Below, piece after piece: positions 4,384 to 23,265 of a stretch of 64,000 nucleotides of DNA. Within the stretch, counting starts at the first letter, position 1. Each line of letters starts with the position of its first letter. Made by a program: the position numbers and the translations under genes. Under the pieces are notes generated by a model, which worked only from the letters and a program-made list of their open reading frames with translations, had not been told where the DNA came from and made no database searches. The DNA is from Myxococcales bacterium (GTDB taxonomy: Bacteria > Myxococcota_A > Polyangia > Polyangiales > Ga0077539): assembly GCA_016792845.1 (NCBI GenBank), contig JAEUKH010000018.1:10984-74983 (forward strand). Direction: 5' to 3'.

Positions 4384-4447
4384 CGCGACAGGCCGAGAGG
4401 GGTTGAACTGCCGATCCAACCCTCGCATCGTGAGGCCCGGGCGCGAC

Positions 4448-6607
4448 GTGGAGATCATCAAAGACACACCCTTCGAGGTCGCCACGGTGACCTGGCAATT
4501 GTCACCGCCTGCGTGGTCGCTCACGGTGGTGGTCAAGGGCACCTTCAGCCTCGCCGACGATGGCAGCCTCAGCGTCGCAGAGACCCAGCGCCCCTGCGAG
4601 GGCGACATTCTGTGGGACGATGTCGAGCCCGGCTCGCCGCGCCGTGAGAGCGACCTGGCGGTGTACAAACCCCGAGGCGAGTGGTTCGTCGAAGGCCACT
4701 GTTACCCGCCCGGCGGCGAAGCCACCACGTCGGCGTGCAGCGTCACCCTCGGCCGTTCGGGCCGCGCCCTCGCCGTCTTCGGCGACCGCCACTGGGGCGC
4801 CGCAGGCGTCGCCTCAGCGCCCGCGCCCTTCACCGCGATGCCCCTCCGATGGGAGCGCGCCTACGGCGGCCCCGGGCACCCGTCGAACCCCGTGGGCCGC
4901 GGCGTCGAGGCCGTCGAGACCCGCGAGGGGCGGGTGCATCGCTTGCCCAACCTCGAAGCCCCCGAGGCGAGGGTCGAGAGCCCCCATCGCCCGGGTTTCG
5001 CAGCGTGTTTCGCCCCCGTCGGGCGCACCTGGCCGGTGCGGAGCGCCTTCGCGGGCACCTACGACGCGACCTGGCGCGCGACGCGCTTCCCGTGGTTCGC
5101 CGCCGACCTCGACACGGCGTACTTTTTGGGCAGCCAGCACCTCCAGTGGGCCGAGACGTATTGGCGCGGCGACGAGCCCTTCGAGCTGGTCAACCTCCAT
5201 CCGCAGCACCCCCGCCTGCGAGGCCAGCTCGCGGCGATGACCGCGCGGGTGCTCGCGACCCCCGCGGGCCTCGCACCCAATGAGACGAACGCCCGGGCCC
5301 TCAACGCCGTCCTCGACACGGTCACGTTTCTGCCCGACGAGATGGCCGTTACGTGTGTCTGGCGCGCGGTGCTCACGGTCACCGACGAGACCGCCTCGAA
5401 CCTCGGCTTTCTCTACGTCACCCACGACGACCTTGAGGCGCCGCGCCCCCTCGCGGCCCTCGTCGCAAGGCTCGCCGCGGAGCGCGACGCGCAGGCCGCC
5501 GAAGCGGGCGCCGACGCCGAGATGCCGCCCCCCGGCGCACCCCTCAGCGACGCCGAGCGGATGTTCTCGCCTGCCGTCGCGGGCCTCGCGGGCACCCTCG
5601 CCGCGCGCGGCATCAGCGCCTTCGACGCGACCCTCCGCACCCACGACGCCGCCCCCGCCCCATCGCCCCCGCAGGTCGATCACGCCGCGTTGCGGGGCCG
5701 CCTCATGGCGCGCCTCGCCAACGACGAGGCCGTCGACGATCTCGACCTGAGCGACGCCGACCTCCGCGGGCTCGACCTCGCCGGGCGGAGCCTCAAGGGC
5801 CTCCTCGCGCCCCGCGCCCAACTGAGCGGCGCGACCCTCGACCGTTGCGATCTCAGCGACGCGGTGCTCACCGACGCGAGCCTCGCCCACGCCGCCCTGC
5901 GCGGCGCGACGCTGACCCGGGCTGAGCTCTCGGGGTGCTCGGCCGAGGCCGCGAGCTTCGACCGCGCGGTGCTCCGCGAGGCGGTCTTCGAGGCCGCGAC
6001 CTTGAGCCGCGCGAGCTTCGCCAACGCCATCGTCGACGGCTGCGATTTCACCCGCGCGGCGCTCTCGGGCGCGGTGCTCCGAGAGGCCTCGGGCAAGGGC
6101 GTCGAATTCACCGCGGCGCGCCTCGACGGCGTTCAGGCCGAGCGCGCAGTGCTGCCCGACGCGACCTTCCGCCGCGCGAGCGTGGTGGGGGCCCGTTTCG
6201 ACGACGCGCGGCTCGACAACCTCCGGGCCCTCGACGGCGCGGTCTTCGACACCACCAGCTTCCGCGGGGCGAAGCTCGACGGCGCCAACTTCAGCGAGTC
6301 GCGGCTCGTCGGGTCACACTTCGCCTTCGCGAGCTTGAAGAAGGCCGAGTTCAGCGACGCCGCGCTCACCCGCGCGGGCTTCGAGGGCTGCGTGCTCAAG
6401 GGCGCGTGCTTCGACCGCGCTGACCTGCGAGAGGCCGCGATGCTGCGCTGCGACCTCCACGAAGCCCGCTTCGAAGCGAGCGACCTCCGCGGCGCCGACC
6501 TCCGCGGCTCGAACCTCTACGGCGCCGAGCTCTGGCGCGCGCAGACCGAAGGGCTACGCACCGAACTGGCCATCGTCACCCGCTCTGGCCTCGACCCCAA
6601 CCTCTGA
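4448..6607 (+). CDS. DUF2169-domain protein fused to C-terminal pentapeptide repeats (T6SS spike-associated family)
   Basis: The six-frame ORF starts at TTG 4403. I place the start at in-frame GTG 4448 (VEIIKDTPFEV..., the typical DUF2169 N-terminus). About 400 aa of DUF2169-like sequence is followed by about 300 aa of A(D/N)LxxA pentapeptide repeats (ADLSDADLRGLDLAGRSLKG...). Confidence 0.65.
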   Translation: MEIIKDTPFEVATVTWQLSPPAWSLTVVVKGTFSLADDGSLSVAETQRPCEGDILWDDVEPGSPRRESDLAVYKPRGEWFVEGHCYPPGGEATTSACSVTLGRSGRALAVFGDRHWGAAGVASAPAPFTAMPLRWERAYGGPGHPSNPVGRGVEAVETREGRVHRLPNLEAPEARVESPHRPGFAACFAPVGRTWPVRSAFAGTYDATWRATRFPWFAADLDTAYFLGSQHLQWAETYWRGDEPFELVNLHPQHPRLRGQLAAMTARVLATPAGLAPNETNARALNAVLDTVTFLPDEMAVTCVWRAVLTVTDETASNLGFLYVTHDDLEAPRPLAALVARLAAERDAQAAEAGADAEMPPPGAPLSDAERMFSPAVAGLAGTLAARGISAFDATLRTHDAAPAPSPPQVDHAALRGRLMARLANDEAVDDLDLSDADLRGLDLAGRSLKGLLAPRAQLSGATLDRCDLSDAVLTDASLAHAALRGATLTRAELSGCSAEAASFDRAVLREAVFEAATLSRASFANAIVDGCDFTRAALSGAVLREASGKGVEFTAARLDGVQAERAVLPDATFRRASVVGARFDDARLDNLRALDGAVFDTTSFRGAKLDGANFSESRLVGSHFAFASLKKAEFSDAALTRAGFEGCVLKGACFDRADLREAAMLRCDLHEARFEASDLRGADLRGSNLYGAELWRAQTEGLRTELAIVTRSGLDPNL

Positions 6608-6616
6608 GCACACCCC

Positions 6617-8566
6617 GTGAACGTACTGACCCACGCGCGCGCCGTGCTCGACCACATTGACGCCCACGGCGCCCTCGAAGACCTGGTGATTCGCGACGTC
6701 GAGCTCTCTGGGCAGACCCTCGCGGGGCTCAAGGTGCGCCGCTGTCGCTTCGAGCGCGTGCGGCTCTGGCGCTGCAATTTCGACAAGAGTCAGTGGCACG
6801 AGGTGACCTTCCGCACCGTCGACCTGCAAGAGTCGACCTGGCGCGGCTGCCGCCTCGAAGGCCTCGACCTGAGCCTCGACGGCGACGATTTTACCCAAGC
6901 CACCGGCGCCGATTTTACCGAGAGCCATTGGCTCCGCGTCAACGCCTCGCGGGCCAACTTCACCCGGGCCGTGCTCCGCGACGCGACGCTGGTGCAGTGC
7001 GACCTCTCGGGCGCCTCGTTCGAAGAGGGCGAGCTGTCGGGACTCACCGCGCCGGGCCTCGTCGCCGTGCAGTGCCAGCTCAGCCGGGCGCGCCTCCACC
7101 GGGCCCTCCTCCGCGGCGCCAACCTCTCGCACGCCATCGCCAAGGGCATCGAGCTGGTCGGCGCGACCCTCGACGAGGCGACGGTCCGGAAGGGCCAGTA
7201 TGACGGCGCCGACTTCTCCGGCGCGAGCGCAGAACGCGTTGATTTCTCAAGAGTTTTGGTACTCACCGGCGCCTTCCAGGGCGCCCGCCTCGGGGGAGCT
7301 CGGCTCGCGCGGTTGAACCTCGGCAGCAGCGATTTTCGCGGCGCCGACCTCCGCGAGGTGTCGTTCTCGGGTTCGCGGCTCGTCGAGTCGCGCTTCGACA
7401 GCGCCAACGCCGCCCGGGCGCGCTTTGCGGGCTCGCGCCTCCGCGCCTGCGTGTTCGAGGGCGCCGACCTCAGCGACGCAGACTTCTCATCGGCCATGCT
7501 CGAACAGGCCCGCTTCACCCGCGCGACCTTGCACCGCGCCGTGTTTCAAGGCGCCAACCTCCGAGAGGCCAGCCTCGACCACGCCGACCTCGGCCACGCC
7601 GACCTCGACGGCGCGACGCTCGCCCAGGCCTCGGGGCGCGGCGTCGGCTTCGCGCACGCCACCCTGCGCGGCGCGACGCTCGCCCACGCGCGCTTCGAGG
7701 GCTGCGATTTTCGAGCGGCCGTCCTCACCGAGGTCGACGCCCGCGAGGGTCACTTTCTCGCGAGCGAGTTCGTGCAGAGCAACCTGGCCAACAGCCAGTG
7801 GGCGCAGGCCAGGCTCGACGAGTGCCTCTTCACCGAGGCCGCCCTCACGGGCGCCACCCTCGCGCGCGCGTCGCTCTGCAAAGCCGTCTTCGCCGAGAGC
7901 GCCCTCGACGGGCTCGACCTGAGCGAGGCCACGCTCACCGAGGCCGACCTCGACGGGCTCGACCTCCGCGCGGTGTTCTTGCGCGGCGCCGACTTCACCC
8001 GCTGCGCCATGGGCGCCGTCGACCTGCGCGAGGCTGACTTGAGCCGCGCCATCCTCACCGACGCCGACCTCGCCGGCGCCCAGCTCAACGGCGCCGTCTT
8101 CGACGAGGCCTGCTGCCTCCGCACGCGCTTCACCGGCGCCGCGATGACAGGGCTCCGCGCCCGTCGCCTCGTCGCCCGCAGCGCCGATTTCAGCGAGGCC
8201 ACCCTCACCGCGGCAGACCTGCGCGGCGCCGACCTCCGCGAGGCCCACTTCGACCGCGCCGTCGTGACCCGCGCGCGCCTCGAACTCGCCCGCCTCGACC
8301 GATGCCGCTTCGTCGAGGCCGACCTCCGGCAGGTCGATGCCGCGTTCGCGCGCGCCCACCACGCCGATTTCGCACAGGCCCGGCTCGACCTCGCCAGCTT
8401 CGTCGACGCCGACCTGCAAGGCGCGAGCTTCCATCGCGCGAGCCGAGACACCGCCCGCTTCGAACGCGCCGACCTCCGCGGGGCCACAGGCACCGACGAA
8501 GAACGCGCGCGGGCCGAGACCTTCAGCCCTCCGAGCGGCCCAGACGCCATGACACACGCGAGGTGA
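6617..8566 (+). CDS. pentapeptide-repeat protein
   Basis: 649-aa ORF composed almost entirely of pentapeptide repeats (…ADLSDADFSSAMLEQARFTRATL…). Starts 10 nt after the previous stop. Same operon as the DUF2169 and PAAR-like genes. Confidence 0.7.
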   Translation: MNVLTHARAVLDHIDAHGALEDLVIRDVELSGQTLAGLKVRRCRFERVRLWRCNFDKSQWHEVTFRTVDLQESTWRGCRLEGLDLSLDGDDFTQATGADFTESHWLRVNASRANFTRAVLRDATLVQCDLSGASFEEGELSGLTAPGLVAVQCQLSRARLHRALLRGANLSHAIAKGIELVGATLDEATVRKGQYDGADFSGASAERVDFSRVLVLTGAFQGARLGGARLARLNLGSSDFRGADLREVSFSGSRLVESRFDSANAARARFAGSRLRACVFEGADLSDADFSSAMLEQARFTRATLHRAVFQGANLREASLDHADLGHADLDGATLAQASGRGVGFAHATLRGATLAHARFEGCDFRAAVLTEVDAREGHFLASEFVQSNLANSQWAQARLDECLFTEAALTGATLARASLCKAVFAESALDGLDLSEATLTEADLDGLDLRAVFLRGADFTRCAMGAVDLREADLSRAILTDADLAGAQLNGAVFDEACCLRTRFTGAAMTGLRARRLVARSADFSEATLTAADLRGADLREAHFDRAVVTRARLELARLDRCRFVEADLRQVDAAFARAHHADFAQARLDLASFVDADLQGASFHRASRDTARFERADLRGATGTDEERARAETFSPPSGPDAMTHAR

Positions 8567-8570
8567 TCCG

Positions 8571-8984
8571 ATGTTTCCAGCTTCGACCAAAGAGGGCGGC
8601 CAGTGTTTCGGCTTCCCTGACGTGTGCAAGGTGCCTGCGCCCCCGGCGCCGCCCATTCCGACACCGTTTCCCAACATTGCAATGTGTGCCAACGCGAGCG
8701 GCGCCTCGGTGACCCAGAAGGTCAAGATCCGTAACAAGCAGGTCTTGCACAAATCCAGTGAGATTCCGAATAGTTCTGGCGACGAGCCGGGCACCCTGGG
8801 GGGCATGATCTCGGGCGTCAACATGTCAAAGGCCGTTTACAAGACGGCATCGTCAAAGGTGCTCGTCGAGGGCAAGTACATCGTCACGCACCTCAAGACG
8901 ACCCCCCAGAACGGGAGCCGCGCGAACGTCCCCATGGGCACCCAGGTCGCCCCCAGTCAGACCAAAGTCATCATCGGTCGGTAG
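8571..8984 (+). CDS. PAAR-like (DUF4150) spike-tip protein, domain only, no C-terminal toxin extension
   Basis: 137-aa ORF. N-terminus FPDVCKVPAPPAPPIPTPFPNIAMCANAS is the hallmark of DUF4150 PAAR-like proteins. GC is about 58-60 %, against about 70 % in the flanks. Confidence 0.65.
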   Translation: MFPASTKEGGQCFGFPDVCKVPAPPAPPIPTPFPNIAMCANASGASVTQKVKIRNKQVLHKSSEIPNSSGDEPGTLGGMISGVNMSKAVYKTASSKVLVEGKYIVTHLKTTPQNGSRANVPMGTQVAPSQTKVIIGR

Positions 8985-9006
8985 CCCCAAGGCAAGAGGC
9001 ACGCGT

Positions 9007-17570: not shown

Positions 17571-19175
17571 ATGAAGTCGATTCGTCGGACGTTCGGAGCT
17601 GCCATCGTCGCAGCCGCCATGCTTGTGGGCGCTGCCCCGGTTTACGCCCAGGTGCCCCAGACCCTCGTGCACCAGGGCCGCCTTCTCGACCGCAACGGCG
17701 CTGCCGTGAGCGGCACCCAGACCCTCACCTACCGCATCTACGACGCCGCCACAGGCGGCTCGCCGGTTTGGTCAGAGACACACACCGTGACCTTCGATGA
17801 AGGGTACTTCTCGGTGCAACTCGGCTCGGTGACCATGATCCCGTCGACGGTGTTCAACGGCTCGACCCGCTACCTCGGGGTCACCGTGGGCAGCGACGCC
17901 GAGATGGCGCCCCGCGAAGTGGTGTCCAGCGTGCCCTACGCCCTCTTGGCGGGCAACGTGGTGGGCGACATCAGCCCCCGCAGCGTCACCGTGGGCGGCC
18001 GCCAGATCATCGACCCCTCGGGCAACTGGGTGGGCGGCTCATCGGGCATCGCGGGCCCCGCCGGTCCGCAGGGGCCTGCCGGGCCTGCCGGCGCTCAGGG
18101 GCCTGCCGGGCCTGCCGGACCGCAAGGCGCCGCGGGGCCTGCCGGCGCGACGGGGCCTGCCGGGCCTGCCGGGCCGCAAGGGCCTGCCGGCACCGGGGGC
18201 GGGGGCAGCGCGCTGAACGGCGGCTGCGTCCAGGGTGTGCGCATCCACGACGTGTGCGTGACCCACTTCGACAACTCGAACCCCGGCACCGACTGGAACA
18301 CCGCCGCCTCGACCTGCGCCGGTCTGCGGAGCGACCTCTGCTCGGCCACGCAGTACAACCGCTTGCGCTACACCAGCGCTTATGACGGCGAAGACTTGTT
18401 CTACAACGACCAGGTCGGTCGACGCGCGGTCTGGTCGCGTCACTTCTCTGACAACGATGCCGGTCGCATTTCGTTTACGTTGCAGAGTTCTGACGATCCC
18501 TCCATCAGCCAGACCTACGGCTTCGCCTGCTGCTCTGCGGCGGCCCCAGCCGATGTCGTCGCGGCCTCGACGCTGGTGCCCGCCCAAGGGTCAACCGACC
18601 GCGGTGTTCGCATCACCTACATCCGCAACGTCGAGTCGGTCACCAGCATGATGGCGGCCAACATCTGCGCGGGTCTCCACAGCGACCTGTGCTCGACGGC
18701 GCAGTACGTCACCCTCAACGACGCGGGCCGCTTCTCGGGCAGCACCCGTCGCCTCACCAACCACTACTCTGACAACGACGGCACGCTGTTCAACCCCATC
18801 CTCGGTTCGAACACGGCCGACAACCCTCAGTGGAACAACGCCTGGTCGTTCGCTTGCTGCGTCTCGCAGCGCCCGGCTGACCTCTCGTGCCCCTCGCCCG
18901 GCACCTCGGTCAACAACGTGTGTGTGATGGCCTTCAACGAGGTCGAGAACGCCACCTTCTTCGACGCCGCCCGCGCCTGCGCCCGGCTCGGGGCCGACGT
19001 CTGCTCGAACAGCCAGATGCAGAGCATCCGCAACGGCGGCCGCTTCGCCGGGGTGCGCGCATGGACGAACAACGGCGCCGACAACGACTCGAACCGCGTC
19101 GGCGGCTTGCTCACCAGCATGCCCGACAACCCCAACCCCACCTCAGACCGCTTCGGCTACGCCTGCTGCCTCTGA
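17571..19175 (+). CDS. secreted collagen-like triple-helix repeat protein with N-terminal beta-rich domain and three C-terminal Cys-rich modules
   Basis: RBS agaggag 8 nt upstream of ATG 17571. Signal peptide MKSIRRTFGAAIVAAAMLVGAAPVYA. About 30 Gly-X-Y triplets (GPAGPQGPAGPAGAQG...). Three modules of about 100 aa each contain CAGLxSDLCS...DND... and end F/Y-(G/A)-(F/Y)-ACC. Confidence 0.7.
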   Translation: MKSIRRTFGAAIVAAAMLVGAAPVYAQVPQTLVHQGRLLDRNGAAVSGTQTLTYRIYDAATGGSPVWSETHTVTFDEGYFSVQLGSVTMIPSTVFNGSTRYLGVTVGSDAEMAPREVVSSVPYALLAGNVVGDISPRSVTVGGRQIIDPSGNWVGGSSGIAGPAGPQGPAGPAGAQGPAGPAGPQGAAGPAGATGPAGPAGPQGPAGTGGGGSALNGGCVQGVRIHDVCVTHFDNSNPGTDWNTAASTCAGLRSDLCSATQYNRLRYTSAYDGEDLFYNDQVGRRAVWSRHFSDNDAGRISFTLQSSDDPSISQTYGFACCSAAAPADVVAASTLVPAQGSTDRGVRITYIRNVESVTSMMAANICAGLHSDLCSTAQYVTLNDAGRFSGSTRRLTNHYSDNDGTLFNPILGSNTADNPQWNNAWSFACCVSQRPADLSCPSPGTSVNNVCVMAFNEVENATFFDAARACARLGADVCSNSQMQSIRNGGRFAGVRAWTNNGADNDSNRVGGLLTSMPDNPNPTSDRFGYACCL

Positions 19176-19240: not shown

Positions 19241-21802
19241 TCACTGCATCGGTAGAACCAGGCCCGGCGCTTCGGCCGCCGCGGTGCTCGGGGGGCCGCT
19301 GTCGTCGTCCTCGCTCCCGGCGTCGGCTTGGGGCGCCGTCGGGTTCTCGACCTCCGCGCCCGCGTCAATCGCCTCGCTCGGAGCCACCGCCGGAAGCACC
19401 GCCTGCCCCGCGTCGACCTCGATGGGTCGCTGCGGCTCGGTGCCCGCGAGAAAGTACTCCTCGATCGGTCGCGCCTGCTCGACCCCCGTCGCCATGGCGG
19501 CGCCCACCGAAGGCAAGCCGCCGGTCAGCGGGTCGATCATCGCCGTCACGACACCCGCGGGCCGCGCGAACTCCAACGCCGGAGCGCGGCTCACCCGCAC
19601 ATACTCGCGCATGAACTGCGTCCAGACGGGCACCGCGGCGCGCGCGCCCTCTTCGCCTGCGCCGAGAGGTTGTCGGTCGTCGAAGCCCACCCAGACGCCC
19701 GCCACGAGGTCAGGGGTGTATCCCACAAACCAGGCGTCTCGCGCCCGATCGGTGGTGCCGGTCTTGCCCGCAGCCGGACGCCCGAGCGCGCGGGCCGCAC
19801 GGGCGGTGCCCTCGTCGATCACCGAGCTGAGCAGGCTCGTCACCAGCCACGCCTCGGCCGCCCCCATCGCTTGCTGCGGCGCCGCCCGGGCCGGCAACGC
19901 GAGCTCGCGCCCCGAAGGATCGACCACCCGAGTGATCACCCTCCAATCTTGGTACTGACCGCCCGCGGCCCAGGTCGCATACGCGTTCGTCAGCTCGATC
20001 GGCGTCACCGACCCTGACCCGAGCGAGAGCGACAAATCAGCCGGGAGCGGCGAGCTCACCCCCAAGGCCCGCGCATGCCCGATCACGGGCTCTGGGCCGA
20101 GCGCGTCGAGCAGGCGCGCCGCGACCATGTTGCGCGACGCGGCCAAGGCCGGGCGCAATCGCATCGGCGCTTCAATCACGCCCGGGCGAGCGTGCGCCTC
20201 GGCCGGGCACCAGGCGTTACGGCCCGAACCAAAGCACCCAGGGTTCGGGTCAAGGGTCGAGGCCAGGGTGTACCGCCGTGCGCTCAGGGCGTACGAGTAC
20301 AGAAAGGGCTTAAAGGCGCTCCCAGGCTGCCGCGAGGCGCGGGTCGCGCGGTTGAACATCCCCGGAAGGGCGTCGTATCCGCCGACCATCGCGCGCAACT
20401 CGCGGGTGTGCGGGTCGATCACCACCATCGCCCCTTGGGGGCCGAGCTCAAGCCTGAAGGCGCCCGTCTCGTTGGCGTTGAGGGTGCGATCGGGCGAGAC
20501 GCGCACCACCGCACCGGGGGGCGCAAACTGCGTCGGGCTCAGCGAAGACGCGTAGCGAAGGGCGGCGTCATTCCACGGCACGCGGCCCGTGACGGTGCCG
20601 ATGCGCACGGTCAGAGCGCCGGGGTGTCTTGAATCTCCGTCTTCAGCAGATTCGACCACGGCTGTATAGATATGCCCAGAGACGACGCGACCGTCTCGCC
20701 CTGGGCGTTCTGCCCTGAGCACGTTGCCGGCCCCGCTCGGCCGTCGCTGGCCCGGCAGCACCAAGGGGCCGCGGTATCCGTGCCGCTGGTCGAGGCTCCG
20801 AAGCCCCCGTTCGAGCGCCTCACGGGCTGCCCGCTGCAGCTGCGGGTCGAGGGTGGTGTACACCGTGTATCCGCCGCGCCGAAGGGCGTCATCGCCGCCC
20901 ACTGCGGTGAGGGCCCGTCGCGCGAGTTCGACCACCTCGGGCGCGTACCCTTCGCTGTCTTCGGGCGCCGACGCGAGGCGCACGGGCTCGTTCGCCGCCC
21001 GCTCGGCCTCGCTCTGCGAGATGAAACCTTTGGCCACCATTTCGCCCAAGATCCAGCGGCGACGGCGCAGCGCGGCCTGGAGATCGTTGCGCGGCGAGTA
21101 GTGCACCGGGCTCTTCGGGATGCCCGCGAGCAGCACCGATTCGCCCAGGGTGAGCTCCGAGACGTGGCGCCCGAAGTAGTACCGCGCCGCCTCTTCGACC
21201 CCATTTCGGCCGTGCCCGAAGGCGATGTGATTCACATACAGATAGAGAATTTCGTTCTTGCTGAGGTCGCGCTCGATGCGGCGCGCGAGGAGCACCTCAC
21301 GCACCTTGCGCGCGAGCGTGCGCTCGCCGCCGAGGAGCACGTTCTTGACCACCTGCTGGGTGATCGTGCTGGCCCCTTGGGCCACCGTGCCGCGACGAAT
21401 GTTGACCACCAGCGCGCGCACCATGCCCGGCCAATCGAGGCCGCGGTGACGGTAGAAATCAGCATCTTCGGCCGCGAGGAGCGCCATCACAAGGTGCCGC
21501 GGCAGCCGCTCAAGCGGCACCACCGTGCGACGCTCCAGGAACAGCTCGGCCAGCACCGAGTTGTCGCGGGCCAGGATCCGCGTCGTCTGCGGCGGTCGCC
21601 ACGCGTTGCGCAGACCATGAACGTCGGGCAGATCGCGGCCATAGTAGGCGAAGAGGCCGACCACCACGAGCACGCCGGTGAGCCCCGCGCCGAGGCCGAG
21701 CGCCCCGACGAGCCCCCAGAGCCGTTTGCGCGAGCTGCGAGTGCGACGAAGACCCTGGTTCGAGGCAGACCCGCCGGGGTCGCGGGAGAGAGACGCTGAC
21801 AT
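19241..21802 (-). CDS. class A penicillin-binding protein (PBP1A-type bifunctional transglycosylase/transpeptidase)
   Basis: 853-aa ORF with an N-terminal TM anchor. GT51 motifs (EDADFYRHRGLD, ...GASTITQQ) and a transpeptidase domain. The C-terminus is Asp/Ser-rich. Confidence 0.8.
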   Translation of the reverse strand: MSASLSRDPGGSASNQGLRRTRSSRKRLWGLVGALGLGAGLTGVLVVVGLFAYYGRDLPDVHGLRNAWRPPQTTRILARDNSVLAELFLERRTVVPLERLPRHLVMALLAAEDADFYRHRGLDWPGMVRALVVNIRRGTVAQGASTITQQVVKNVLLGGERTLARKVREVLLARRIERDLSKNEILYLYVNHIAFGHGRNGVEEAARYYFGRHVSELTLGESVLLAGIPKSPVHYSPRNDLQAALRRRRWILGEMVAKGFISQSEAERAANEPVRLASAPEDSEGYAPEVVELARRALTAVGGDDALRRGGYTVYTTLDPQLQRAAREALERGLRSLDQRHGYRGPLVLPGQRRPSGAGNVLRAERPGRDGRVVSGHIYTAVVESAEDGDSRHPGALTVRIGTVTGRVPWNDAALRYASSLSPTQFAPPGAVVRVSPDRTLNANETGAFRLELGPQGAMVVIDPHTRELRAMVGGYDALPGMFNRATRASRQPGSAFKPFLYSYALSARRYTLASTLDPNPGCFGSGRNAWCPAEAHARPGVIEAPMRLRPALAASRNMVAARLLDALGPEPVIGHARALGVSSPLPADLSLSLGSGSVTPIELTNAYATWAAGGQYQDWRVITRVVDPSGRELALPARAAPQQAMGAAEAWLVTSLLSSVIDEGTARAARALGRPAAGKTGTTDRARDAWFVGYTPDLVAGVWVGFDDRQPLGAGEEGARAAVPVWTQFMREYVRVSRAPALEFARPAGVVTAMIDPLTGGLPSVGAAMATGVEQARPIEEYFLAGTEPQRPIEVDAGQAVLPAVAPSEAIDAGAEVENPTAPQADAGSEDDDSGPPSTAAAEAPGLVLPMQ

Positions 21803-21876
21803 CGTAGCGCGATGCTACCACCTCTCTCGCGATGGCCTCGGGGCATTGGCCCAAGGTCTGCTAGTGACGGCCTTTG

Positions 21877-23265
21877 ATGACTCACTCCATCGTGCGCAAC
21901 CGTAAGGCACGGGTCCTCGTGGTTGACGACGACCAAGACCTCGCGGCCTTCTTGGTCGACGTGCTGAACGCCTCAGGGCACGACGCGAGCGCGTGTCACG
22001 CCGCCACCAGCGCGATGGCCAGCATCGAAGAGACCACCCCCGACCTGGTCGTCACCGACGTCCACATGGAGGGCACCGACGGGATCGCCCTCATCGAGTG
22101 GGTGCGCGGCTTCGACCCCCGGGTGGCCATCATCGCCATCACGGCCTTTGGCAGCATCGAGACCGCCGTACGGGCCGTGCGCGCCGGGGCCTACGATTAC
22201 CTCACCAAACCCTTCGAACCGCAGGCCTTCCGTCTCGGCGTCGACCGCGCCCTAGAGACCACCGAGCTGCGCAGCGAGCTTCGGCGGCTCCGCGACGCGC
22301 TCGGCGAGCGCTTCGGCATCGCGGGCCTCGTCGGTCGTTCGAGGGCCCTGGCCGAGATCTCTGCGTTGGTCCAGCGCGTGGCCGACTCGAGCGCCACGGT
22401 GCTGGTCACGGGCCCCTCGGGCTCGGGCAAGGAGCTCATCGCGCGGGCCCTGCACACCGAGTCAAAGCGCCGAAACGCACGCTTCGTCGCGGTCAACTGT
22501 GCAGCCATCCCCGACACCCTGCTCGAGAGCGAGCTCTTCGGATACAAAAAGGGCGCCTTCACCGACGCCAAGGGCGACCGCACGGGGCTCTTCCAAGAGG
22601 CGCACCGCGGCACGCTGTTTCTCGACGAAATCGGCGACCTGCCGATGGCCCTTCAGGCCAAGATCTTGCGCGTCTTGCAAGAGCGCGAGGTGCGCCCCCT
22701 CGGGGCCGCGCGGGGCGAGGCCATCGACGTCAGGGTCGTCGCGGCGACCCACCATGATCTCCGCAAGGCCGTTCAAGAAGGGCGCTTTCGCGAAGATTTG
22801 TTCTACCGCCTCGCGGTCATCGAGGTGGGCGTGCCGGCCTTGCGCGACCGGCCCGAAGACGTCTTGCCGCTCGCAGAGCACTTTCTGAAACGCTTCACCG
22901 CACGGGCCAGCGCCAAGATCCGAGGCTTCTCGGGCGCCGCCGTCAAGCGCATGGAGAGCTACCACTGGCCCGGCAACGTGCGCGAGCTCGAGAACGCCGT
23001 CGAGCGCGCGGTGGCCCTCGCGCGCGAGGAGCTTGTCACCCCCGACGACCTCCCGCCGAGCCTCGCCTCGCCCGAGCCTGGCGATTTTCTCACCTTCGCC
23101 GCCGAGCGCGAGATGACCCTCGATGAGCTCACCATGGCCTACCTGCGCCGCGTGCTCGAGCGCACCGGCAACAACAAGAAGCGAACCGCGCGCATCCTGG
23201 GCGTCGACCGGCGCACCGTCCAGCGCTGGCTCGGCGAGCGACCTGACGCCGACGACGACACCTGA
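21877..23265 (+). CDS. sigma-54-dependent response regulator (NtrC/Fis family: receiver + AAA+ + HTH)
   Basis: ATG 21877 (MTHSIVRNRKARVLVVDDD...). Receiver Asp in DLVVTDVHMEG. AAA+ motifs GPSGSGKE and GAFTDA (GAFTGA variant). C-terminal Fis-type HTH (KKRTARILGVDRRTVQR). Confidence 0.8.
   Translation: MTHSIVRNRKARVLVVDDDQDLAAFLVDVLNASGHDASACHAATSAMASIEETTPDLVVTDVHMEGTDGIALIEWVRGFDPRVAIIAITAFGSIETAVRAVRAGAYDYLTKPFEPQAFRLGVDRALETTELRSELRRLRDALGERFGIAGLVGRSRALAEISALVQRVADSSATVLVTGPSGSGKELIARALHTESKRRNARFVAVNCAAIPDTLLESELFGYKKGAFTDAKGDRTGLFQEAHRGTLFLDEIGDLPMALQAKILRVLQEREVRPLGAARGEAIDVRVVAATHHDLRKAVQEGRFREDLFYRLAVIEVGVPALRDRPEDVLPLAEHFLKRFTARASAKIRGFSGAAVKRMESYHWPGNVRELENAVERAVALAREELVTPDDLPPSLASPEPGDFLTFAAEREMTLDELTMAYLRRVLERTGNNKKRTARILGVDRRTVQRWLGERPDADDDT

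Follow-up and report, generated by a model that had tools for sequence, protein, structure and literature searches.

Within a 64,000-nucleotide stretch of Myxococcales bacterium DNA (contig JAEUKH010000018.1 of GenBank assembly GCA_016792845.1, positions 10,984 to 74,983 of the forward strand; hereafter, the window), we analyzed a gene for a 534-residue protein and the two lipoprotein genes that precede it on the same strand (Table 1). The G+C content of the window is about 70%. GenBank lists a protein with 100% identity to the gene product as MBL8601402.1, "hypothetical protein [Myxococcales bacterium]." The best explanation of the gene is that it encodes a secreted fiber in which a short collagen stalk links a base domain to a head made up of three disulfide-locked C-type-lectin-like domains (CTLDs); we refer to this protein as the fiber. 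Its reading frame is open upstream to GTG 17331, and ATG 17571 is the likely start, since a GAGGAG ribosome-binding site lies 8 nucleotides 5' of this codon and the Sec signal peptide that begins there is a typical one. As read by eye, the signal peptide is MKSIRRTFGAAIVAAAMLVGAAPVYA, followed at the cleavage junction by QVPQ, and a junction of the form ...A(A/S)AQVP is kept among the fiber homologs.

Table 1. Features of the window, with the fiber and its lipoproteins first (aa, amino acids)
Feature	Position	Strand	Remarks
Fiber gene	17571-19175	+	534 aa plus stop codon
Sec (type I) signal peptide, aa 1-26	17571-17648	+	Cleavage after VYA; by eye from the sequence
N-terminal base domain, aa 27-156 (130 aa)	17649-18038	+	NCBIfam NF053851 match, E 7.2e-6, subthreshold
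Collagen-like Gly-X-Y tract, aa 159-212	18045-18206	+	In the reading frame of the gene; 16 GP(A/Q)-type triplets plus GTG GGG
C-type-lectin-like module 1, aa 215-321	18213-18533	+	6 Cys
C-type-lectin-like module 2, aa 322-430	18534-18860	+	4 Cys; without the N-terminal hairpin disulfide
C-type-lectin-like module 3, aa 431-534	18861-19172	+	6 Cys; most conserved of the three
Lipoprotein A	16461-16886	+	Lipobox LAVGC, short acidic linker, C-x-G-E-L-C-P loop, 50-aa C-terminal domain
Lipoprotein B	16942-17526	+	Lipobox MLAGC, ~115-aa Asp/Thr/Gly/Pro-rich linker, 50-aa C-terminal domain
DUF2169 plus pentapeptide-repeat protein	4403-6604	+	
Pentapeptide-repeat protein	6617-8563	+	
VgrG	9007-10659	+	Phage_GPD, E 6.6e-51
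932-aa protein	10659-13457	+	No Pfam match
RCC1-repeat protein with Stig1/MXAN_6577-like Cys-rich segment	13454-15037	+	Overlaps the stop codon of the 932-aa gene
TPR-repeat protein, N-terminal hydrophobic region	15091-16383	+	Flanked by the RCC1 and lipoprotein A genes
Class A penicillin-binding protein (Transgly plus Transpeptidase)	19241-21802	-	Convergent with the fiber gene
NtrC-type sigma-54 response regulator	21874-23265	+	Divergent from the penicillin-binding protein gene

The base domain, in which the motifs quoted by an earlier, sequence-only reading of this DNA (the first-pass annotation) are present, had no match by sequence in the PDB, Pfam, or PHROG, and its profile retrieved noise alone from the PDB sequences (enterotoxin A, E > 0.1). 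It did match NCBIfam NF053851 (Bdello_MAT_N, "mosaic adhesive trimer family chimeric fiber protein"), a profile of 162 positions with a curated cutoff of 60 bits. The fiber scored 25.9 bits, and all 23 of the 23 aligned family members matched the profile (best E 2.8e-9), every one with a score below the cutoff. A subthreshold score is expected in another phylum, because NF053851 is a Bdellovibrio-specific subfamily model. On sequence, the base domain thus appears to be a remote, subthreshold relative of the N-terminal domain of Bdellovibrio mosaic adhesive trimer (MAT) fibers. In the work that described these fibers as built from an unvarying N-domain and a trimeric stalk, with tips that can be swapped, the MAT N-domain was likewise without a structural homolog in the PDB (Caulton et al. 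2024, PMC10769870).

The collagen-like tract that follows is 18 Gly-X-Y triplets long. Sixteen of them are canonical and of the GP(A/Q) type, with proline at 12 of the 16 X positions, and the last two (GTG GGG) form part of a glycine linker. The first-pass annotation had counted about 30 uninterrupted triplets, an overcount given the 16-18 found in frame; its concern that the tract might be out of frame was not borne out. Pfam Collagen matched the tract just under its gathering score (23.8 bits versus 27.2; E 3.8e-5). The length of the tract is unstable, with 18, 14, 9, or 0 triplets in orthologs at 55-96% identity and 28-96 triplets in distant members. Judging from these sequences, the collagen stalk is dispensable in close orthologs.

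The remainder of the protein is occupied by three tandem modules of about 105 residues, which had been reported as repeats of about 100 residues and which share 32-35% identity with one another (pairwise BLASTP, E 4e-12 and 2e-14). The ACC endings and the minimum of four cysteines per module noted earlier were confirmed: the modules end in YGFACC, WSFACC, and FGYACC, and the 6-4-6 cysteine pattern is kept in 20 of 20 full-length homologs. No Pfam, NCBIfam, or PHROG family covers the repeats; matches to Pfam MHC_II_alpha, DUF5795, and Gp58 lay far below threshold and were disregarded.

The fold of the modules was approached through structure prediction and profile searches. An AlphaFold2 model of module 3, built from a 21-sequence module alignment (predicted local distance difference test [pLDDT], 76.8), contains in order a hairpin, two helices, a long loop, and a final strand. 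All the elements of the CTLD fold were found: the two helices, the long-loop region, and beta1 together with the final strand that pairs with it. When the module profile was run against the PDB sequences, the top match, at a marginal E of 0.025, was 8oks_B. An exhaustive search of 1.84 billion representative proteins matched the profile, at E 1.2e-11, to protein P0189, which has nine Pfam Lectin_C stretches and so links the modules indirectly to that family. Modules 1 and 3 begin with C-P-x(8-9)-C-V-x-x-F and continue with T-F-x-x-A-x-x-x-C-x-x-x-G-A-x-[LV]-C-S, a beginning that looks like the N-terminal half of a "long-form" CTLD.

The cysteines of the modules are consistent with this assignment. 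Those of the "AxxxC" element in alpha1 and of the terminal CC are invariant, as the CTLD disulfide between alpha1 and the last strand would require. In P0154, P0156, and P0162, module 1 has lost two cysteines, the one of "DLC" and the second one of the terminal CC. Because the two are lost together, the "DLC" cysteine probably pairs with the second cysteine of the CC, and by elimination the alpha1 cysteine would pair with the first, giving the canonical CTLD disulfide. Modules 1 and 3 would carry an extra N-terminal hairpin disulfide, which brings the predicted disulfides to eight. The hairpin cysteines were absent from all 73 of 73 second modules and present in 72 of 73 third modules and in at least 55 of 73 first modules; 16 further first modules show just the second hairpin cysteine in the alignment, and the missing first one is probably an alignment artifact. 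The long-loop region holds an acidic motif, D-N-D followed 11-14 residues on by D-(D/N)-P, which is invariant in every module of every family member and which we regard as a candidate metal or ligand site.

The three modules occur as a unit. Their family is a small one, with 91 clusters among the 1.84 billion proteins at E ≤ 1e-3 and 63 of these at E ≤ 1e-30, and in 67 of 67 complete proteins analyzed there were exactly three modules at the extreme C terminus. Mean identity was 44%, 46%, and 53% for first, second, and third modules, respectively, compared with their counterparts at the same position and 31-33% across positions. The modules are therefore orthologous by position, and the triplication predates the spread of the family. 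An AlphaFold2 model of aa 212-534, based on 36 diverse sequences, reached a pLDDT of 91.7 and a predicted template modeling score of 0.92, values that speak for one confidently packed body and not for beads on a string; the three modules are accordingly predicted to pack as a single rigid body. No solved or viral structure with this three-domain arrangement was found by Foldseek with the whole head. The three-CTLD head is an obligate, uncharacterized cassette. These results support the earlier proposal of disulfide-stabilized lectin-like or adhesin modules on a collagen stalk, for which a binding function is presumed.

Base domains and heads occur in various combinations. The N-domain is widespread in Myxococcota and is complete in at least 116 of the retrieved proteins, the sources being Sorangium, Nannocystis, Polyangium, Minicystis, and many metagenome-assembled genomes (MAGs). 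The same domain, at 41-70% identity and with or without collagen, is joined to the triple lectin head, to Collar (P0113), to COLFI (P0109), to other beta domains, to long beta stalks, and to further heads, and in P0028 to a single related module behind a long collagen stalk, an arrangement like that of Bdellovibrio Bd2740. The triple head, for its part, is found on at least five kinds of N-terminal architecture. Three of these start with the MAT-like domain: in one it stands with or without collagen, in another it leads into long beta-stalk repeats, and in the third a P-domain-like module comes after it. The other two are lipoproteins, either Cys-rich/IPT-like with a coiled-coil neck or with collagen only. 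A swappable C-terminal tip on a constant N-terminal part, a feature of MAT proteins, was therefore found in this family.

Several triple-head proteins carry further elements. In P0136, P0140, and P0144, the N-terminal domain is unrelated to the MAT-like base, which it replaces, and bears the motif T-P-C-R-x-x-D-[ST]-R; the head cassette has therefore moved onto non-MAT scaffolds too. The long triple-head fibers P0148, P0157, P0158, P0161, P0163, P0167, and P0170-P0176 share a conserved segment ahead of the head, IPDNNPxG...GDLTxWxGKNPKGxWxLxVxD...DGxIxxWSIxxQTLSxKKIQVKG, which presumably resembles the proprotein-convertase P-domain. Finally, the triple-head proteins P0022 and P0126 have a D-x-D-x-D-G-rich insertion (aa ~165-215; DTDSDGFVDWIE...DADQNGVPD) between the N-domain and the collagen tract, in which we see a resemblance to thrombospondin type-3 calcium-binding repeats.

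The two genes upstream encode paralogous lipoproteins with 50% identity; the first-pass annotation had already called both products lipoproteins, and their lipoboxes bear this out. Both have a lipobox, an Asp/Thr/Gly/Pro-rich linker, a C-x-G-E-L-C-P loop, and a conserved 50-residue C-terminal domain with two S-x-x-[FY]-R-[ML] motifs (...FRMVSTLGQSSIHQ...FRLRGGLVGA.GGR). This domain reads ...FRMVSTLGQSSIHQ...FVLRGGLVGA... in lipoprotein A (motif hidden Markov model [HMM], E 4.8e-29) and was matched at E 7.4e-31 in lipoprotein B; the HMM found only these two copies in the 64-kb window. The frame of lipoprotein A is open from TTG 16398, ATG 16461 behind AGAGG being the likelier start, and that of lipoprotein B likely starts at ATG 16942 and ends 44 bp before the fiber gene. 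No annotated family was found for the lipoproteins, and a profile-profile comparison revealed no relation between their domain and the N-domain of the fiber. Matches to NCBIfam "invert_tail" (E 0.014-0.02) were regarded as spurious, as they cover the signal-peptide/lipobox region.

The DNA encoding the acidic linker of lipoprotein B is a tandem repeat with a 48-bp period (17097-17212), and that encoding the collagen tract is likewise a tandem repeat, with a 27/54-bp period (18052-18190). Both lengths could therefore change by slippage, and the spacer lengths of lipoprotein B and the fiber might co-vary.

To evaluate how constant the pairing of lipoprotein and fiber is, we scored the lipoprotein domain at E ≤ 1e-3 over 19 distinct fiber loci from genomes and MAGs, gathered with single-protein queries, which reach close relatives only. 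The domain was encoded directly upstream, on the same strand, in 14 of the 19 loci, including those of fibers with other heads (L006 from Sorangium, L018, L019 from Polyangium, and L021). Thus, the lipoprotein goes with the base and stalk, not with the head. One MAG contains two fiber paralogs, L007 and L010, and a separate lipoprotein gene lies upstream of each. In the reverse direction, all 3 of 3 metagenome loci retrieved by the lipoprotein motif have a fiber gene directly downstream. Beyond these genes the neighborhood is not conserved among the loci, and the conserved unit is therefore lipoprotein plus fiber, in keeping with the link between lipoproteins and fiber that had been suggested from the window. 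Going by this synteny, the role of the lipoprotein could lie in anchoring, in assembly, or elsewhere.

Three loci deserve a separate description. L005 (7703-9828, negative strand), from Polyangium jinanense, has a weak lipoprotein-motif match (E 6e-5) in a 97-aa gene downstream on the opposite strand; this gene adjoins one for an outer-membrane protein with OmpA plus TSP_3, and the fiber could be anchored differently by such an arrangement. L017 (3917-6418) and L015 (3926-4963) encode the same N-domain and have no upstream lipoprotein. The C-terminal segment of the L017 fiber (…NYNDAQNVCYALGGHLPTYNEMYRLA…NGDWIGHRTGDDDAYCV…RPFRCV) looks like a different CTLD; Collagen is the only Pfam match to this protein. 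The L015 fiber ends in a short beta-rich head of unknown type.

Among the closest known systems are the MAT fibers of Bdellovibrio bacteriovorus, above all Bd2740, which has a trimeric C-type-lectin tip (PDB 8OKS; PMC10769870). Common to both are a signal peptide, a fiber stalk, a swappable C-terminal tip, and occurrence in predatory bacteria, and their conserved N-terminal base domains may be related (subthreshold matches to NF053851 here). The stalk in the present family is a short collagen tract or is absent, whereas the MAT stalk is coiled or beta-helical. Each chain here has three tandem lectin-like domains, in contrast to one per chain in the Bd2740 homotrimer, and the modules are disulfide-rich with a vicinal terminal CC. 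A conserved upstream lipoprotein is present here and none is described in the main text of the MAT paper, the Bdellovibrio loci themselves not having been compared. MAT proteins from a "Myxococcales bacterium" already appear in Table S3 of that paper, along with collagen-like, FGE, and invasin/intimin tip domains.

On this basis, we consider the protein to be a secreted adhesive fiber, presumed trimeric, of the MAT type, in a Myxococcota bacterium, with a probability of about 60%. The fiber would be exported by Sec and trimerized via its base domain and collagen tract. Such a trimer could present up to nine disulfide-locked lectin-like domains about 14 nm from the base, a distance that follows from 48 residues and a rise of about 0.29 nm per residue in collagen. 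The head may bind a surface ligand, most likely a glycan, with avidity from multivalency and possibly via a metal held by the acidic motif. Prey, the substrate, and kin cells are all possible carriers of this ligand. The lipoprotein, through its lipid anchor and its long acidic linker, would tether or assemble the fiber base at the outer membrane.

A number of observations weigh against this interpretation. The matches of the N-domain to NF053851 span only profile positions 13-77 of 162, all of them under the curated cutoff. Trimerization is proposed here because Gly-X-Y repeats imply a triple helix; the collagen tract is absent from seven close orthologs. Pfam Lectin_C (PF00059) matched none of the modules even at E ≤ 10, and the calcium/sugar motifs EPN/QPD and WND are absent from all three. 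The nearest bacterial relatives, Bd2740 and the Legionella pneumophila adhesin Lcl, bind without calcium. In the fiber sequence itself, only the Sec signal is evident, with no outer-membrane export route or surface-anchor signal. The argument for contact between lipoprotein and fiber is one of synteny, and the lipoprotein domain was a weak match on the opposite strand just downstream of the fiber in 2 of the 19 loci and was not found at the above threshold in 3 of them.

The main alternative is a soluble or matrix-embedded collectin-like lectin, which would agglutinate cells or cross-link polysaccharide, be it in the extracellular matrix, in a biofilm or fruiting body, or in the spore coat, with the lipoprotein as an assembly or secretion helper and not an anchor. 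The order of collagen then C-type-lectin-like domain is indeed the collectin layout, as the first-pass annotation had pointed out, and the fiber itself has no anchor motif. The vertebrate collectins (MBL, SP-A, SP-D, and CL-K1) differ in other respects. Instead of a Cys-rich N-terminal segment, collagen, an alpha-helical coiled-coil neck, and one C-type carbohydrate-recognition domain per chain, we found a 130-residue MAT-like domain, collagen, the glycine linker GTGGGGSALNGG, and three lectin-like domains, which also differ from the collectin domain in their disulfide pattern and in being without the EPN/QPD and WND motifs. The resemblance in layout is probably convergent.

Two bacterial proteins bear on the same alternative. 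Lcl, also a collagen-plus-lectin-like protein, is secreted and bound only peripherally (PMC11162425). Its N terminus is a 30-residue amphipathic helix in place of the 130-residue domain found here, and its head (C-terminal domain, PDB 8Q4E) is one DUF1566-type domain per chain, without disulfides, as a homotrimer. The NCBIfam models for Lcl, Scl1, and Scl2 (NF046116, NF038329, and NF038330) scored 24-30 bits on the fiber versus cutoffs of 325-500, and within aa 156-210, the collagen tract, only; among them, adhesin_Lcl scored 29 bits versus a cutoff of 500. The top PDB sequence match (E 1.4e-4) was BclA of Bacillus anthracis (PDB 1WCK), an exosporium protein that, as is presumed for the fiber, forms a collagen-like filament on a bacterial surface and ends in a globular head. 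However, this match is confined to the Gly-X-Y repeats and little beyond them, and the BclA head is a C1q/TNF-like jelly roll, whereas the fiber head is C-type lectin-like. The same holds for the likeness to C1q drawn earlier, which had to be given up: what follows the collagen is an alpha/beta C-type-lectin-like head and not the TNF-like gC1q jelly roll. In addition, the base domain resembles that of MAT fibers, which Caulton et al. put next to the cell surface (PMC10769870), and the tight synteny with a lipid-anchored partner suggests tethering. We therefore regard a soluble lectin as rather unlikely.

A location inside the envelope seems improbable. In that case, the fiber would be a periplasmic or envelope structural protein whose domains bind peptidoglycan or another envelope glycan from inside, tethered by the lipoprotein to the inner face of the outer membrane. 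A Sec signal with no recognizable signal for crossing the outer membrane, the compatibility of a disulfide-rich protein with the periplasm, and the convergent gene for a class A penicillin-binding protein would all accord with this arrangement. Yet that neighbor is not conserved at other loci, the nearest relatives (MAT fibers and Lcl) are surface-exposed, and exchanging heads while the base stays the same is typical of proteins that recognize diverse targets at the surface.

An origin as a receptor-binding tail fiber of a phage, prophage, or tailocin is very unlikely. The fiber shares with phage collagen-like tail fibers and with Mtd of the Bordetella phage a trimeric design, here presumed, and variable C-terminal recognition domains; collagen-like tail fibers and C-type-lectin receptor-binding proteins such as Mtd do exist, and PHROG tail-fiber families matched the fiber with E values down to 3e-18. 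All PHROG matches, however, fall on the Gly-X-Y tract or right next to it, within aa 93-282, whereas the N-domain, the head, and the lipoproteins had none. The phage tail-fiber likeness noted in the first-pass annotation is thus limited to the collagen repeat itself. Foldseek against viral structures returned only weak matches to eukaryotic-virus lectins. There are no adjacent phage structural genes, the neighbors are chromosomal, the flanks differ between loci, and a Sec signal peptide is unusual in a virion protein. Least likely of all is that the fiber serves the type VI secretion vgrG island 2.5-13 kb upstream as an accessory or effector. This island has VgrG, DUF2169-pentapeptide, and pentapeptide proteins on the same strand at 4403-10659, but a Sec signal peptide is not expected of type VI cargo, no VgrG or DUF2169 neighbor was seen in other fiber loci with called genes, and the TPR and RCC1 genes intervene.

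Returning to the MAT-type adhesive fiber, we put forward, tentatively, a joint proposal that goes further: that an intrachain, clover-like pseudo-trimer of the three modules replaces the homotrimeric tip of Bd2740 and that the upstream lipoprotein is an outer-membrane anchor on which the N-terminal base docks via the 50-residue domain. Geometrically, such a clover is plausible, as a CTLD has its two termini next to each other and only short linkers separate the domains here. If the first part is true, one polypeptide would form a complete "trimeric" recognition face, and a collagen trimer would carry three such faces. If the second is true, the lipoprotein would be the "surface element" that, according to Caulton et al., the MAT N-domain must bind and that is not yet identified.

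The two points that stand out are the obligate three-CTLD head and the conserved lipoprotein partner. MAT fibers were defined in 2024 in Bdellovibrio as the predator's multi-specific prey-recognition toolkit. The locus shows a distantly related fiber family in Myxococcota, a group that includes "wolf-pack" predators, and the conserved neighboring lipoprotein is a testable candidate for the tethering or assembly of MAT-like fibers. Many of the proteins with the base domain have collagen as an adjustable spacer, together with heads that are interchangeable. The protein thus fits a known fiber type and is best read as a myxobacterial MAT-like, collectin-like adhesive fiber with a candidate lipoprotein partner, its ligand, surface display, and anchoring being those we infer above. 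In combining collagen with a C-type-lectin-like head, it is a bacterial counterpart of the animal collectin design.

The remaining genes around the fiber are of mixed character. The type VI secretion vgrG island lies upstream on the same (positive) strand, within 4403-15037, and its 932-aa protein may be a cargo effector. No terminator-like hairpin was found between the convergent genes for the fiber and the penicillin-binding protein. In L001/L002 and L005, too, TPR proteins are encoded near the fiber gene, although their strands and positions differ from those seen here.

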